Program-made: the position numbers and the translations under genes
The notes under the pieces: generated by a model
The model's input: only the letters and a program-made list of their open reading frames with translations
The model's database searches: none
Told to the model about the DNA's origin: nothing
Shown: positions 47,411 to 52,146 of the stretch, one piece after another
Layout: every line of letters begins with the position of its first letter
Numbering within the stretch: position 1 is the first letter of the stretch
Assembly (NCBI GenBank): GCA_038059695.1
Contig: JBBTIZ010000004.1
Location: forward strand, 1 to 62,661
Reading direction: 5' to 3'
DNA from: Planctomycetota bacterium
Lineage (GTDB): Bacteria > Planctomycetota > MHYJ01 > JACQXL01
DNA length: 62,661 nt

Positions 47411-48259
47411 ATGAAGGATGAATATAAACCGCCCAAGACCCGCAGGATGACATTCCTTTTTGCTAAAATAAACCTCCTTGACCTTTTCGGCAAAAAGCAA
47501 AAAGATAAATTCTATGAAAACCTTTTGGCGATGCAGGAAAAGAAATCCGAGGTTAAGAGATTTTTCTGGGCGTTAGGGGATATCGGAAAGGACAAGTGTG
47601 ATGGGATTGAGATTGTCTATGGGCGATTCGGGAAGACCCCTACAGAGAGATTCAAGAAGTCATACGACGAACAAAAACATTCTTATGATGGCCTGGCTGA
47701 AGATAGAGCGTCTGATTGGGCTAATTTTTTTATCGTTCCTAATTATGATATTATTGCCTTTGAGGAGAAGGCGACCATTGTCAGGCGACAGTTTGCAAGA
47801 CGATTTGGTGATTTGTGGAGAAAAACCACCGGTTCTGAAATCGCCTTAGAGTTTTTGGTAAATAAAGAAGAGGTTCTAAGGATAATTAAAAGTTGGGATA
47901 AGATAACCTGGGCGAGTTTTACTTTACGACGGAATCCGGATACCCCAGATGAATATAAAGAATTAGACGGCCTGATAATAAAGACTAATTCTCGTAAGAC
48001 CAAAATTGCCTTTGAGAATACAAGAGAACAAGATGGATTGAATCTTCAGAAGACCATAGTAGGACAAGCGTTTTCTATGGCAATCGGCGGGCATGGAGAA
48101 TTCCGGCTAAAAGGTAAAAAAGGCGATGCCACCGAAAAAGTTACCACTAAAGAAACGTTAATTACTAAAGAAAAAGACCTTGTTGATGAATTACCTGCGA
48201 TATGTGAATGGATAGGTAAGGAATTACGTAATATTATAAAAGGAAAACAGAGCGGTTAA
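47411..48259 (+). CDS. Hypothetical protein, DUF4747-like pattern
   Basis: AGGAG RBS; F..P...IAFE, I.SW..I....F.L..NPD, GLNL, A..G.G.F pattern recalled for this family. Confidence 0.45.
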   Translation: MKDEYKPPKTRRMTFLFAKINLLDLFGKKQKDKFYENLLAMQEKKSEVKRFFWALGDIGKDKCDGIEIVYGRFGKTPTERFKKSYDEQKHSYDGLAEDRASDWANFFIVPNYDIIAFEEKATIVRRQFARRFGDLWRKTTGSEIALEFLVNKEEVLRIIKSWDKITWASFTLRRNPDTPDEYKELDGLIIKTNSRKTKIAFENTREQDGLNLQKTIVGQAFSMAIGGHGEFRLKGKKGDATEKVTTKETLITKEKDLVDELPAICEWIGKELRNIIKGKQSG

Positions 48260-48289
48260 TCCAACAACGGAAACCGACTATTAAATAAT

Positions 48290-49735
48290 ATGGTTTATAT
48301 AAAAATACCAGGATGGGCAAGGGCTGGTAAATGGTGTGATGTCCTGAAAATATTAGAGTCCACCGAGACCGCTGGTGAAAAGATAAAGATTTTAGAAGAA
48401 TTCTATAGTGCAGAAAATAAAGAGAAGAAACCTAACCGTCATTATATAGGCGCATCAGCCCACTATTTGGCTGACCCTTACAGGGGTATAAAGAATGAGC
48501 CGAAAGCCGAAGAGTATTATAAGGTTGCCAAGGGCTACTATACAGAATTGTTAACCAATTGCGTTGCTATTATAAATAAGAAAAACAAATCAGCAGCGGA
48601 TATAGAGGAAGTGCAAAACGACCTTGTTACTCTTCTCCCTGATTTATTACGATTATTTAGAGAGCATGACAAATCGTGGGGAATCAGGAAGTTGCTTCAT
48701 TTATGGGAAAATATACGCAGTGAGATTCATATCCCATTACCAATAATAGCAGCGGTTGACCATCTAAAACGAAAAGAGAGCAAGACCAAAGACACCATTG
48801 ATGAGGTATTGCGTGATGTGGTCGGAACAGACCCTAAATTCACTAAGGAATTGTTCCGTGCTTGCATAGTGGGTAATTATAATGTTCCCGTATTAATTCT
48901 TGGCGAAACTGGTACGGGTAAAGAAATTATTGCAAAAACAATCCGCTTATTCAGTAAACGTGCGGACAAACCGTTTATGGCGGTTAATTGCGCTACTTTA
49001 TCTGAAACTCTAATGGAGTCGGAATTATTCGGCCATAAGAAGGGTTCTTTTTCAGGGGCTATTGATGATAAGAAAGGCAAATTTGAGGTGGTAAATGGGG
49101 GGACTTTATTCCTTGATGAAATAGCCGAATTACCATCTAAAGTACAAGCAGGTATCCTGCGGGCCATTCAGGAGGGTGAAATTACACCGGTCGGCAGCAA
49201 CGAAATTATTAAGGTTGATGTGCGGCTTATATGCGCCACGAATGAAATATTGTCCGATAGAATAAGAGATAACAAATTCCGCAAAGACTTATTTTATCGT
49301 ATTGCAGTTTACATAATAAATTTACCATCTTTAAGAGAGCGCACGAATGACATCCCTTCAATCGCTGGATTCTATGCGAATAAGTTTGCCCAGGATTTAT
49401 TAACGACCGGCAATGTTAAAATTGAACCCGGAACTATAGAAAAGCTGCAAAAACATCCCTGGCCAGGGAATATCAGGGAATTGCAGAATGTAATCATAAG
49501 GGCTATAATTAATTATGATGGAGAATCTATTAAGCCGGAAGATATTATCTTTGATGATATTATGCAGGTTCAATCTTCAACGGTAGCAATTAGTCCGTTA
49601 AAAGAAATGGAAAAGGCATACATTACAATGGCGCTCCGGCAGTGTAATGGTAATAAAACTCATACCGCTAAAAAGCTATTGATATCTCGGAATAAACTTC
49701 TAAGTAAACTAAAGCAATTTAAGATAATCGTTTAA
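48290..49735 (+). CDS. sigma54-dependent enhancer-binding protein with unrecognised N-terminal domain
   Basis: GETGTGKE, NCA, ESELFGH..GSFSGA, GGTLFLDEI, FR.DLFYRI, WPGNIRELQN, Fis-type HTH. Confidence 0.92.
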   Translation: MVYIKIPGWARAGKWCDVLKILESTETAGEKIKILEEFYSAENKEKKPNRHYIGASAHYLADPYRGIKNEPKAEEYYKVAKGYYTELLTNCVAIINKKNKSAADIEEVQNDLVTLLPDLLRLFREHDKSWGIRKLLHLWENIRSEIHIPLPIIAAVDHLKRKESKTKDTIDEVLRDVVGTDPKFTKELFRACIVGNYNVPVLILGETGTGKEIIAKTIRLFSKRADKPFMAVNCATLSETLMESELFGHKKGSFSGAIDDKKGKFEVVNGGTLFLDEIAELPSKVQAGILRAIQEGEITPVGSNEIIKVDVRLICATNEILSDRIRDNKFRKDLFYRIAVYIINLPSLRERTNDIPSIAGFYANKFAQDLLTTGNVKIEPGTIEKLQKHPWPGNIRELQNVIIRAIINYDGESIKPEDIIFDDIMQVQSSTVAISPLKEMEKAYITMALRQCNGNKTHTAKKLLISRNKLLSKLKQFKIIV

Positions 49736-49746
49736 TCTATTTAATT

Positions 49747-49766
49747 ATTGCATAGCACTATGCAAT
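49747..49766. promoter_or_regulatory. Candidate upstream activating sequence
   Basis: Perfect ATTGCATAG-CA-CTATGCAAT palindrome, extra half site CTGCATAG at 49769-49776, about 130-150 bp upstream of the -24 element. Confidence 0.65.
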
Positions 49767-49895
49767 TTCTGCATAGTAAATCCCTGCACTCGTTAAACGC
49801 CACCCTCGCCCGTAAATAATAAATATTGAAATAACCCCATAGTTCATAAGGGATTCTGCCTAATCAATCAAAATATTCATCGTATCTCCTCATTC

Positions 49896-49911
49896 TGGCA
49901 CGCTATTTGCA
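49896..49911 (+). promoter_or_regulatory. sigma54 -24/-12 promoter
   Basis: TGGCACG-CTAT-TTGCA matches TGGCACG-N4-TTGCW exactly, GG-N10-GC spacing. Confidence 0.88.
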
Positions 49912-49960
49912 TATCTATAGAGTGTCGGGCAATTAAGCCCGGCAAGAAACGGAGGCAGAT

Positions 49961-50053
49961 ATGCCGAAGTTAATATCTGATTTCTGGAAACGGGTTATCC
50001 GGACGGTGATTGAAATCGTCCTGACTCTAATCCAGAAGAGGATAAATAAATAG
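49961..50053 (+). CDS. Small ORF, 30-aa amphipathic cationic peptide (MPKLISDFWKRVIRTVIEIVLTLIQKRINK)
   Basis: GGAGG at 49951-49955, first ATG after the sigma54 promoter; below the ORF-track cutoff. Confidence 0.6.
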   Translation: MPKLISDFWKRVIRTVIEIVLTLIQKRINK

Positions 50054-50081
50054 TCCCAACGCATGCTGACGCATGTCGGGA

Positions 50082-50118
50082 TAAGAGCCAGTAACGACTG
50101 AAGTCTAACTGGCTCTAA
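50082..50118 (+). repeat. GAGCCAGTAAC-GAC..GTC-TAACTGGCTC hairpin
   Basis: Same family as 51143-51181, 11690-11727 and 59949-60058. Confidence 0.75.
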
Positions 50119-50244
50119 TAAAAACAACGGTTCCGGAGGGGTTGTCATTAGTGTCAGGTGTGCCGGCATCCTGTAGATGCCGGCCTTGAATAGCACCAGC
50201 AGGACACGATAACCCCTCTGGGCCGATAAAGATAAGGAAAATAT

Positions 50245-51039
50245 ATGATACACACGAAGATTATTGTGCCGGTTGTGGCGCTGCTCACGCCGCATCCGGA
50301 TATGTCCACCAAACGGGTGGAAGGACTGCAGAACAACGCGGAACGGATGAACGAGCACCGGAAGACCCGCGTTCCGGACGACGGAACTTTCGGCCAGTTG
50401 ATTGCCTCGCAGTCAGCCGATAAGTTCAAGGACCGGGTTAATTTCACCACGGTCGGGCCGAGCGACCGCGATGCCGCGGACATCTACACGATGCAACGCG
50501 GTAAAATCCTTAAGGCGTATAATAAATACAACGACGGGTTGGATTATGCCTTTGAGGAAAAGGACGGCGTCTTCGCTAAACTGTTCAAGGATGCGGTTGA
50601 AGCCAAGGCGTCTAACTGGGATGAAGCCGTAGCGCTGAGCACCCTGCGTTTCACCGGCAGCCGGGCCAGGGGCCGGCAGGTGGCTTCCATTATGGGTTAC
50701 TGGCTGACCGGCGATACCCACGCCACCCAAAAACTGCCTGAGGGTTCCCAGGTCTTGGCCGGCGGACCCTATGATGTCTCCGCCGCGGGCTTGAAATCAC
50801 TGCTCAGGAGCGGATTGACTCAACTGCTGGTCCAGACCGGCGTGCTGGTTACCGAGTCGGGTTACGAGCCGACCATGCTCGCCAAACACAACGGCAGAAT
50901 CAAGGATTTACTGGAGCGGTTGTCAGACCCGGTTAAGGCAAATAACTGGGTGGCCACCATAACCCCGGATAAGTCCTATTGCGCCTGGTTCGTGGAGGAC
51001 GGGCAACTGAAACTGGAGACCCAGATTTACACGGTGTAA
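50245..51039 (+). CDS. Uncharacterised 264-aa protein, paralog of 11814-12614
   Basis: AAGGA RBS; collinear shared motifs across the full length. Confidence 0.85.
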   Translation: MIHTKIIVPVVALLTPHPDMSTKRVEGLQNNAERMNEHRKTRVPDDGTFGQLIASQSADKFKDRVNFTTVGPSDRDAADIYTMQRGKILKAYNKYNDGLDYAFEEKDGVFAKLFKDAVEAKASNWDEAVALSTLRFTGSRARGRQVASIMGYWLTGDTHATQKLPEGSQVLAGGPYDVSAAGLKSLLRSGLTQLLVQTGVLVTESGYEPTMLAKHNGRIKDLLERLSDPVKANNWVATITPDKSYCAWFVEDGQLKLETQIYTV

Positions 51040-51100
51040 ATTCACCCCTCACCCTGCCCTGCACCATCTGGTGCAGGGTAAGGGCAGAGGGAGAAGATTA

Positions 51101-51181
51101 ATAATAATGAATGCCCGCCGACGCTGAAGCTTTGGCGGGGTCTAAGAGCCAGTAACGACCATAGGTCTAACTGGCTCTAAG
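51101..51181 (+). other. Conserved structured intergenic element between the two module genes
   Basis: ATAATAATGAATGCCC...GCGGGGTCTAAG...GTAACGACC..GGTCTAAC...TAAG shared with 11690-11760. Confidence 0.7.
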
Positions 51182-51198
51182 AAAAGGAGTAATTTATT

Positions 51199-52146
51199 AT
51201 GGCAAGAATACTTTATGACCGGATTAACGAGATTAAATCAAAGCACCTAAGCCCGCAATCGGTCACGGGCGATAAGATAGCCAGCGATGCTATTGAGGAG
51301 AAACACATCAAGGACGGCGTAGTCACCAAGCGTAAGATTGCCGACGGCGTGGTCGGCACTGATGAATTAGTGGACGGTTCGGTTACCACAGCCAAGATAG
51401 CCAGCAAGGCAGTAACCAATGATAAGTTACAATCGGCCAGCGTTACTAATGAAAAGATTGCAGATGGGTCAATAACCTCAGGCAAGATAGTGGCCGGAGC
51501 AATAACCACGGAGAAGATTGCCAACGGCGCTATTACCAGAGACAAGGTGGCAGACCGTTCGGTCGGGACTGATGACATTGTGGATGGTGCTGTGACAAAC
51601 GCCAAGTTAGGCAGTAACTCGGTAACCGGGGCGAAAATCGCGGCCAATGCGGTCGGCTCATCAGAGATTGCGGCAGGAGCGGTCGGAACGAGCGAACTGG
51701 CGAATAATGCAGTGACCAGTGATAAGATACTGGATGCAAGTGTAACGCAGGCGAAATTGGCTCCGGGAGTCGGAGGAAATCGGATAGTGTTCCTGCCCAC
51801 CCGGATGCAGATGACCAGTTTAATCGTGACCGGCAATCAGGATTGGATACCCATGCCGCCGAGTCCGGGTGTTCCGCCGGAGGCCACGGCCTTAATCCTG
51901 CAGATTGAATTGGTGCAACAGAGTATTGCTCCGCCGCCCCAGGGCTGGCTCAACTGCCGTCTCAGGCGCGATGCCACCCAACCCGAATGTTACGCGATTG
52001 GCGTAGAGGCAAAAAATGTCGGACAGGTCTATGGCGGGCAGGTGATTGTACCCATCACCGCCGGCTCGTTCCAGTATGCCTTTACCGATGCGTACGGGAA
52101 TATAAGTATCACCTTCAATCCGTATGTTGTCGGGTATGTCGTTTAG
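51199..52146 (+). CDS. Fibre-like repeat protein B (decapeptide repeats plus C-terminal beta-rich domain)
   Basis: AAGGAG RBS; IADG.VT..K repeats; KLAPGVGG junction shared with protein A; different C-terminal domain ending VGYVV. Confidence 0.8.
   Translation: MARILYDRINEIKSKHLSPQSVTGDKIASDAIEEKHIKDGVVTKRKIADGVVGTDELVDGSVTTAKIASKAVTNDKLQSASVTNEKIADGSITSGKIVAGAITTEKIANGAITRDKVADRSVGTDDIVDGAVTNAKLGSNSVTGAKIAANAVGSSEIAAGAVGTSELANNAVTSDKILDASVTQAKLAPGVGGNRIVFLPTRMQMTSLIVTGNQDWIPMPPSPGVPPEATALILQIELVQQSIAPPPQGWLNCRLRRDATQPECYAIGVEAKNVGQVYGGQVIVPITAGSFQYAFTDAYGNISITFNPYVVGYVV

Follow-up and report, generated by a model that had tools for sequence, protein, structure and literature searches.

How might one copy of a gene module that is spread over a genome come to be governed by an activator of its own? 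The question is raised by a locus on contig JBBTIZ010000004.1 of a Planctomycetota bacterium (assembly GCA_038059695.1), in which the gene for a sigma-54 enhancer-binding protein (EBP) is followed by a palindrome, a sigma-54 promoter and an operon comprising a short open reading frame (sORF), a gene for a 264-residue protein (p264) and a gene for a fibre-like protein. We analysed the whole 62,661-nucleotide stretch, hereafter called the window, which is contig C4 of a 1.27 Mb, 55%-complete assembly (G000). Homologues of the window proteins are annotated as belonging to metagenome-assembled genomes of Planctomycetota or Candidatus Brocadiia.

We consider it probable that the locus carries a working, portable sigma-54 regulatory cassette that is joined to one copy of this multi-copy module. 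The assignment draws on a second copy of the cassette, carried by a 7.5 kb Logan (metagenome) contig, L051. A sequence-only reading of the window had put forward the idea of a circuit in which a dedicated EBP, bound at the palindrome, activates transcription of the sORF, p264 and fibre genes from the sigma-54 promoter, and the comparison with L051 strongly supports it. The EBP, the palindrome, the promoter and the open reading frames of that reading have held up, whereas an integration host factor (IHF)-like site, a DUF4747-like label for the gene upstream of the EBP and the description of the circuit as complete have not.

Overall organization of the locus

The features on which the argument draws are as follows.

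44803–47346, + strand: Type IIG restriction-modification (RM) gene (Pfam Eco57I, N6_Mtase and TaqI_C; PADLOC REase_MTase_IIG, 1.1e-124)
47399–50042, + strand: cassette, consisting of p282, EBP, half-sites, sigma-54 promoter, 5' hairpin and sORF (blastn homology block with L051:4306–6920)
47411–48259, + strand: p282, a 282-residue orphan protein
48290–49735, + strand: sigma-54 EBP, 481 residues
49749–49776, no strand assigned: upstream activating sequence with three perfect TGCATAG half-sites
49896–49911, + strand: sigma-54 promoter TGGCACGCTATTTGCA, exact consensus
49923–49944, + strand: 5'-terminal stem-loop of the predicted transcript, 8 bp stem and 6 nt loop
49961–50053, + strand: sORF, 30-residue peptide
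50054–50244, + strand: structured spacer between sORF and p264 (fold z –3.5)
50245–51039, + strand: p264, 264 residues, a lineage-restricted expanded family
51199–52146, + strand: fibre-like protein, 315 residues, with tail-fibre-type repeats

The Type IIG gene is directly upstream of the cassette on the same strand, as the sequence-only reading had it, and the three operon frames likewise lie where that reading placed them. The GC content is 33–42% over 44.4–50.0 kb, a block that takes in the RM gene, p282, the EBP and the regulatory region, compared with 50–57% in the module and flanks. The compositional boundary is sharp, with the low-GC block ending at about 50.0 kb.

A second copy of the cassette

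The genes of L051 are, in order, an AlwI-type endonuclease, two methyltransferases, p282, a 479-residue EBP, an intergenic region, the sORF and the start of a p264-family gene. By blastn, positions 47399–50042 of the window align with L051 4306–6920 at 75.8% identity over 2665 nt, and the homology ends on both sides. The flanks of the two copies differ: the RM genes upstream are unrelated and the p264 genes downstream belong to different subfamilies, that of L051 resembling the C84 and C23 paralogues of the window genome. The linkage of activator, palindrome and module, which the sequence-only reading had proposed to look for among homologues, therefore recurs in L051 with a different p264 paralogue.

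Between the two copies synonymous sites are near saturation (proportion of synonymous differences, pS, 0.5–0.6), with the coding DNA about 76% identical. The EBPs share 68% identity along their full length, the N-terminal domain included. The ratio of nonsynonymous to synonymous substitution (dN/dS) indicates purifying selection on the EBP (0.18), on its N-terminal domain (0.27), on the sORF (0.26) and, more strongly than on the EBP, on p282 (0.08–0.14). L051 also contains a second small open reading frame of about 33 residues, rich in lysine and proline, between the sORF and the p264 homologue (L051:7079–7180), for which the window has no counterpart.

Activator sites, promoter and 5' leader

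The palindrome noticed in the sequence-only reading is indeed perfect over 9 bp arms, ATTGCATAG-ca-CTATGCAAT, at 49747–49766, and is unique in the assembly at up to three mismatches. A third TGCATAG half-site follows it at 49770–49776, so that forward half-sites start at 49749 and 49770 and a reverse one at 49758, with sites of the same orientation 21 bp apart; a degenerate fourth half-site, CTATTTA, is at 49737. The TGCATAG motif is rarer than expected in the assembly (52 copies compared with about 155 expected), yet three copies fall within 30 bp here. In L051 all of the half-sites read TCCATAG rather than TGCATAG, with identical 9, 12 and 21 bp spacing, and there are four of them, the first being the one that is degenerate in the window.

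No part of the EBP is less conserved than the helix-turn-helix (HTH; 59% identical; proportion of nonsynonymous differences, pN, 0.28), and the recognition helix starts with ISRNK in one orthologue and IDYKT in the other. The half-site array thus appears to covary with the divergence of the C-terminal HTH between the loci, as would be expected of cognate upstream sites. The first forward site lies 147 bp from the –24 T in the window and 137 bp from it in L051, a difference of one helical turn.

The promoter TGGCACGCTATTTGCA matches all 12 consensus bases of TGGCACG-N4-TTGCW exactly, one match compared with 0.03 expected per window from shuffles, in agreement with the consensus TGGCACG-N4-TTGCA promoter of the sequence-only reading. 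It is also the sole match in the window to the looser TGGCAC-N5-TTGCW at up to one mismatch. The GG of the –24 element is at 49897–8 and the GC of the –12 element at 49909–10, in the right place and orientation for the operon and with a predicted transcription start near 49922. Both elements are kept in L051 as TGGCACGCCTTTTGCT, and the 27 nt just downstream of the promoter, TGTCGGGCAATTAAGCCCGGCAAGAAA, are 100% identical there. The –12 region, TTGCATATCTATAG (49906–49919), resembles the half-site pair TTGCATAG..CTATGCAA (49748–49755), by chance or as a weak extra binding site.

A hairpin at 49923–49944 (dG –19.5 kcal/mol, z –4.6) begins 1–3 nt after the predicted start and is followed by a GGAGG ribosome-binding site (RBS). 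The exact 23 nt 5' leader has no match in the genome and metagenome contigs searched. No terminator is predicted on the + strand over 49000–52100, which includes the distance from the promoter to the fibre gene, and no sigma-70-like promoter is predicted on the + strand over 49548–50245. Taken together, the intergenic footprints form the pattern expected where an activator binds as a dimer, a sigma-54 promoter follows and the mRNA begins with a hairpin.

The stretch between the sites and the promoter is not conserved in L051. It includes the IHF-like site AATCAAAATATTC (49866–49878, + strand), with which the sequence-only reading had completed the arrangement. Matches of this kind, with one mismatch, are at chance level (84 in the window compared with 67 +/- 9 expected), and we do not assign an IHF site between the activator sites and the promoter. 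Such sites are common in sigma-54 regulons, but they are not obligatory. The genome has two genes of the HU/IHF family.

A different conserved 5' hairpin, CCACAGATAAAAAATA(G/A)CCTGTGG, lies just before the sORF RBS in two other module copies that begin with the sORF (L022:560–1066 and L011:5647–6001), the first of which also has a sigma-70-like promoter, TTGTCA-17-TAAAAA. A hairpin at the 5' end therefore seems to be general, with its sequence interchangeable.

The enhancer-binding protein

The EBP is encoded by an intact open reading frame and matches Sigma54_activat (PF00158; 1.3e-61, residues 178–343), AAA_lid_14 and the Fis-type HTH_8 (1.1e-9, residues 437–477), so the earlier identification stands. 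The translation displays the Walker A motif GETGTGKE, the Walker B motif LFLDEI and the sequences RKDLFYRI and PGNIREL; the AAA+ domain is thus complete with both Walker motifs and arginine fingers. The best match in the PDB is ZraR (1ojl, 2.8e-70), and the other solved relatives are NifA, NtrC1 and PspF.

The L1 loop that contacts sigma-54, canonically GAFTGA, reads GSFSGA in the window EBP and GAYTGA in that of L051. GSFTGA is frequent in the EBPs of relatives, and the loop is probably functional.

For residues 1–175 Pfam gives nothing, even at E <= 1, in line with the earlier remark that the first 170 or so residues show no REC, GAF or PAS motif. Relatives of this domain were sought with a word-based search, with HMMER against 1.84 billion representatives, in 30 related genomes and in both contig collections; the L051 orthologue was the only one found. 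The best PADLOC match of the EBP is the model RtcR_PspF2, at 1.5e-102 over residues 161–479 only, which leaves the CARF part of the model unmatched. Structure prediction of the N-terminus, which the sequence-only reading had suggested, yielded an all-helical AlphaFold2 model of residues 1–177 (pLDDT 63.5, from an alignment of two sequences) but no significant Foldseek match. The best hit had an E value of 0.18, among weak matches to alpha/alpha-repeat proteins (designed toroids, NprR and the tetratricopeptide repeats (TPRs) of LGN). These matches are a hint at most of an alpha-repeat or TPR-like architecture; the domain is perhaps a helical repeat and may bind a protein or peptide. Since the model is all-helical, alpha/beta folds of the REC, GAF, PAS and CARF kinds are excluded.

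A paralogous EBP in the same assembly, truncated by the end of its contig (C67:1–1600), has a long N-terminus that looks TPR-like by eye and a GAYTGA loop. Helical-repeat sensors therefore occur in the lineage.

The candidate partner protein p282

The gene immediately upstream of the EBP encodes a protein for which the L051 copy, at 86–89% identity, is the only homologue among 5.8 billion proteins. Neither Pfam, NCBIfam, PADLOC nor PHROG gives a match to p282 even at E <= 1, the PDB gives none, and the gene was not found in 400 Planctomycetota species genomes. The DUF4747-like label once attached to 47411–48259 has to be abandoned, there being no Pfam match at E <= 1. By analogy with EBPs that are controlled by the product of an adjacent gene, p282 is a candidate co-sensor or anti-activator of the EBP.

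The p282 gene contains a tract of seven T residues at 47725–47731 (+ strand). The corresponding tract in L051 has eight (about 4633–4640), which splits the gene into two frames. Because strong purifying selection still acts on both halves, we favour an assembly error, or a change that is very recent or reversible, over an old pseudogene. The tract might be such an assembly error or, alternatively, a slippage-prone switch. Just downstream of it, reading by eye, we note a possible nuclease-like motif, YD-x6-EEK (D-x6-EEK).

Homology to L051 starts just 12 nt ahead of the start of p282. The ATG of the L051 copy is one base past the stop codon of a methyltransferase, and in the window the gap between the RM gene and p282 is 64 nt and holds no predicted terminator. 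Since the homology starts so close to p282, the gaps are short and no terminator is predicted, it is probable that p282 and the EBP form the end of the RM transcript at both loci.

The module and its junction with the cassette

The operon opens with the sORF, which is also where cassette and module meet. It encodes a cationic, amphipathic peptide of 30 residues, MPKLISDFWKRVIRTVIEIVLTLIQKRINK, and about one third of module copies begin with it. In the window it is a mosaic: its last 60 nt are 88% identical to L022 and 70% to L051, while everything upstream is like L051. L022 carries a 95%-identical orthologue of the window p264, and its homology with the window starts only at the RBS of the sORF. 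Because the mosaic, the limit of L022 homology and the GC content agree, we regard the cassette as a foreign front end that was fused, within the sORF, to a module already resident.

The sequence-only reading spoke of 'module copy 2', which understates the expansion, as this half-genome has at least 12 copies of p264. They lie on contigs C4, C5, C11, C18, C19 (two copies), C23, C27, C62, C84 and C91 of G000; the relatives compared are genomes G001–G009. Fibre paralogues occur in at least 13 places in the assembly, and most of the 12 p264 copies are directly followed by a fibre gene. In ten genomes of the family, this one included, there are 12–27 copies of p264 in eight, four in one and none in one; the family genomes with 12–27 copies are 2–3 Mb in size. 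At a strict threshold p264 is restricted to this Planctomycetota family, apart from a few genomes elsewhere in its order.

The AlphaFold2 model of p264 has a pLDDT of 80, and Foldseek found no match to it at E <= 0.001 in the PDB or BFVD. An assignment of p264 as a colicin E1 channel domain, from a weak profile match (E 0.01), had no fold support and was dropped. The fibre protein combines about 190 residues of tail-fibre-type repeats (PHROG 892, 1.3e-37) with a globular C-terminal domain of about 120 residues. No phage structural genes were seen around any module copy examined, and no signal peptide is obvious by eye in the translation of p264 or of the fibre protein. p264 matches no PADLOC defence model; the fibre protein matches PD-Lambda-5_A at 2e-9, through its repeats only.

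The upstream genes of other module copies are varied. They include an extracytoplasmic function (ECF)-like sigma factor with Peptidase_S24 (L009 and L010), an ECF-like sigma factor with a TPR protein (C18), RM genes (L011), trypsin-like proteases and others. Within the window, a string of sigma, S24 and kinase genes lies beside the left RM island (18181–22325), and genes for HTH/S24-peptidase proteins and ECF-type sigma factors recur by module copies in L009 and L010. Since other copies carry other upstream genes, the cassette can be seen as one of several interchangeable regulatory front ends, with the sORF as the point at which a front end and a module body are joined. That ECF-type sigma factors keep recurring beside the module tentatively suggests an envelope-related, inducible structure. 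Our best guess is an inducible fibre structure aided by a membrane-active peptide.

The locus had been described as a defence island. RM genes do adjoin both module copies in the window and both copies of the cassette, but the module is spread over the genome and is no speciality of such islands. The label derives solely from the adjoining RM genes, and a defence role is unproven.

Frequency of the linkage and sigma-54 in the lineage

The linkage of activator and module is rare, not general. Of the approximately 36 other module copies examined, not one is preceded by a sigma-54 promoter within 700 nt, and among 56 genomes of the class the window genome is the only one in which such a promoter is joined to the sORF (none of the 55 others). 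An EBP gene does lie by a module copy in one relative (G004, C15:39261–42327, L017), but it is convergent to the p264 and fibre genes rather than upstream of them and may be there by coincidence; it was not counted.

The gene for sigma-54, rpoN, was found in 18 of 21 relatives, the ten of high quality all having it, and genomes of the lineage have between six and 50 EBP genes; the lineage therefore uses sigma-54. The window genome has a second EBP gene (C26:1664–3400, an 890-residue frame), which is followed on its own strand, after about 580 nt, by the same promoter consensus in the form TGGCACGGTATTTGCT (at C26:3122) and then by a gene for a protein of 640 residues. The C26 leader carries a hairpin scaffold, GGGATAAGA..GGTAAC...TAAC..GGCTCTAAG, that is also found at 50075–50120 of the window, and we therefore take it to be a dispersed element that precedes an RBS and is not specific to the module.

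A model for regulation

Sigma-54 circuits are textbook material, so that the circuit as such is no surprise; we propose that it would operate in the following steps. p282 and the EBP, which lack a conserved promoter of their own, would be transcribed by read-through from the RM operon. EBP dimers would then bind the alternating half-sites of the 21 bp repeat through the Fis-type HTH, as the covariation of sites and protein suggests. A signal sensed by p282, the N-terminal domain or the two together would, as in other EBPs, release oligomerization of the AAA+ domains. From what is known of the family, the oligomer would contact the sigma-54 holoenzyme about 147 bp downstream and open the promoter. 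Transcription would run from about 49922 to the end of the operon, across sORF, p264 and fibre gene, with the hairpin probably stabilizing the mRNA.

Several points weigh against this model. All of the collections searched yielded just two instances of the cassette, so that the covariation is derived from a single comparison, and the coordinated G/C changes would also keep an RNA or DNA hairpin. In L051 the p282 gene is frameshifted. The model of the EBP N-terminal domain is of low confidence (pLDDT 63.5). No rpoN gene (PF04552) was found in the available 55%-complete assembly, and to speak of a complete circuit, as the sequence-only reading did, is accordingly an overstatement. No finding ties the circuit to infection or DNA damage, which the sequence-only reading had suggested as possible signals; the sole contextual hint is that both copies of the cassette are appended to RM operons. 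Finally, the loops of both EBPs deviate from GAFTGA, and activity is not guaranteed, since PspF with the corresponding substitutions T86S and F85Y keeps its contact with sigma-54 region I in a form that differs from the wild type (PMC3467059).

A bolder version of the model can be formulated, in which the pair of p282 and EBP is a second-line infection sensor. Co-expressed with the restriction enzyme, it would use p282, with its possible nuclease-like motif, and the orphan helical domain to detect some consequence of phage attack or of the failure of restriction, and would fire the otherwise silent sigma-54 promoter for a burst of membrane-active peptide and fibre apparatus. The sORF would serve as a recombination adapter for swapping sensor front ends (sigma-54 EBP, ECF sigma with S24 peptidase and others) onto a large repertoire of fibre modules. 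We regard this version as improbable.

Alternative explanations

The alternative that survives best, although we think it unlikely, makes the 30-residue amphipathic peptide the sole true target, namely a tightly silenced membrane toxin of an RM-linked unit, with p264 and the fibre gene as read-through bystanders. The DNA homology of the two cassette copies stops exactly at the end of the sORF, close to the point where the low-GC block ends (50.0 kb), and the cationic, amphipathic character of the peptide fits. Sigma-54 promoters are silent without their activator, which would suit a toxic product. However, the sORF precedes p264 in many loci that have no cassette, its 3' part in the window is of the module type, a p264-family gene follows both copies of the cassette and no terminator is predicted between sORF and p264.

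It is also conceivable, though distinctly unlikely, that an RM island with an outward-facing EBP and promoter landed by a module copy through accidental insertion, that the arrangement has no adaptive role and that it may be decaying. This would be at odds with the second locus, where the same junction with a p264-family gene is found next to a different RM system and with a different p264 subfamily, and with the purifying selection on all of the cassette genes and the footprinted non-coding elements. An accident would nevertheless account for the sharp compositional boundary, for the lack of a sigma-54 promoter at the approximately 36 other module copies, for the absence of the cassette from the 55 class genomes and 400 phylum genomes searched and for the non-canonical GAFTGA loops.

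We think it very unlikely that the palindrome is a terminator or an RNA hairpin ending the p282–EBP message, with the promoter served by another EBP or a relic: the palindrome does begin 12 nt past the stop codon of the EBP gene, with TTTCT after it, and the G/C exchanges between the loci preserve base pairing, but a 9 bp stem with a 2 nt loop makes a poor hairpin at which the terminator scan made no call, the third half-site (and the fourth in L051) shares the base change without a hairpin needing it, the 21 bp period of the sites is strict at both loci, the 10 bp difference in promoter distance keeps the helical phase and the change in the sites is paralleled by divergence of the HTH.

Relation to known systems and implications

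The reading that we prefer, a working portable cassette on one module copy, places the EBP with activators of the NtrC, PspF and ZraR class. It shares with them the AAA+ sigma-54 interaction domain, the lid, the C-terminal Fis-type HTH, inverted-repeat sites 100–150 bp upstream of a GG-N10-GC promoter and the position of the activator gene beside its target operon. It differs in its orphan, predicted all-helical N-terminal domain, which is not of the REC, GAF, PAS, V4R or CARF type, in the GSFSGA loop, in belonging to a gene pair appended to an RM operon and in the uncharacterized module that would be its target. RtcR (CARF–AAA+–HTH) has the same length and the same AAA+ and HTH core, and is likewise a stress-sensing EBP for one adjacent operon, but its N-terminal part has an alpha/beta CARF fold to which the window EBP, with its predicted all-alpha N-terminus, shows no match.

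The conservation of p282 immediately upstream of the EBP at both loci recalls the pairs PspA–PspF, NifL–NifA and HrpV–HrpS, in which an EBP is controlled in trans by a partner from the adjacent gene. p282 resembles none of the partners PspA, NifL and HrpV, an interaction between p282 and the EBP is purely inferred and the window EBP keeps an N-terminal domain of its own.

A two-gene regulatory front end before different cargo operons, near defence genes, is also a feature of CapH–CapP and CapK–CapS (PMC13373217), which are repressor-based, DNA-damage-responsive regulators upstream of diverse immune operons. The present cassette differs in being an activator and sigma-54 front end, with a cargo that is not a known immune system. 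A literature search on sigma-54 activators in anti-phage defence and on this Planctomycetota gene family returned nothing relevant. The fibre protein, for its part, has the same short repeats as phage tail fibres (PHROG 892) over about 190 of its 315 residues; it differs from them in having no virion, baseplate or other phage genes nearby and in belonging to a chromosomal family that is always paired with p264.

Three aspects of the locus are unusual. Firstly, a helical domain of 170 residues together with a co-conserved 282-residue partner, both without relatives outside one metagenome contig, would define a new class of EBP input. Secondly, the unit of regulator, sites, promoter and leader behaves as a portable cassette, which in both known cases is joined to the 3' end of the RM operon on one side and to the fibre module's 5' end on the other, and is a natural example of the swapping of promoter and regulator at a short peptide gene. 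Thirdly, the two orthologous loci, with TGCATAG and TCCATAG sites and two diverged HTHs, represent a ready-made specificity swap.

For the biology of anaerobic Planctomycetota, the circuit provides an experimental handle on an abundant, uncharacterized gene family: a truncated, constitutively active form of the EBP could turn on one defined copy of the module.

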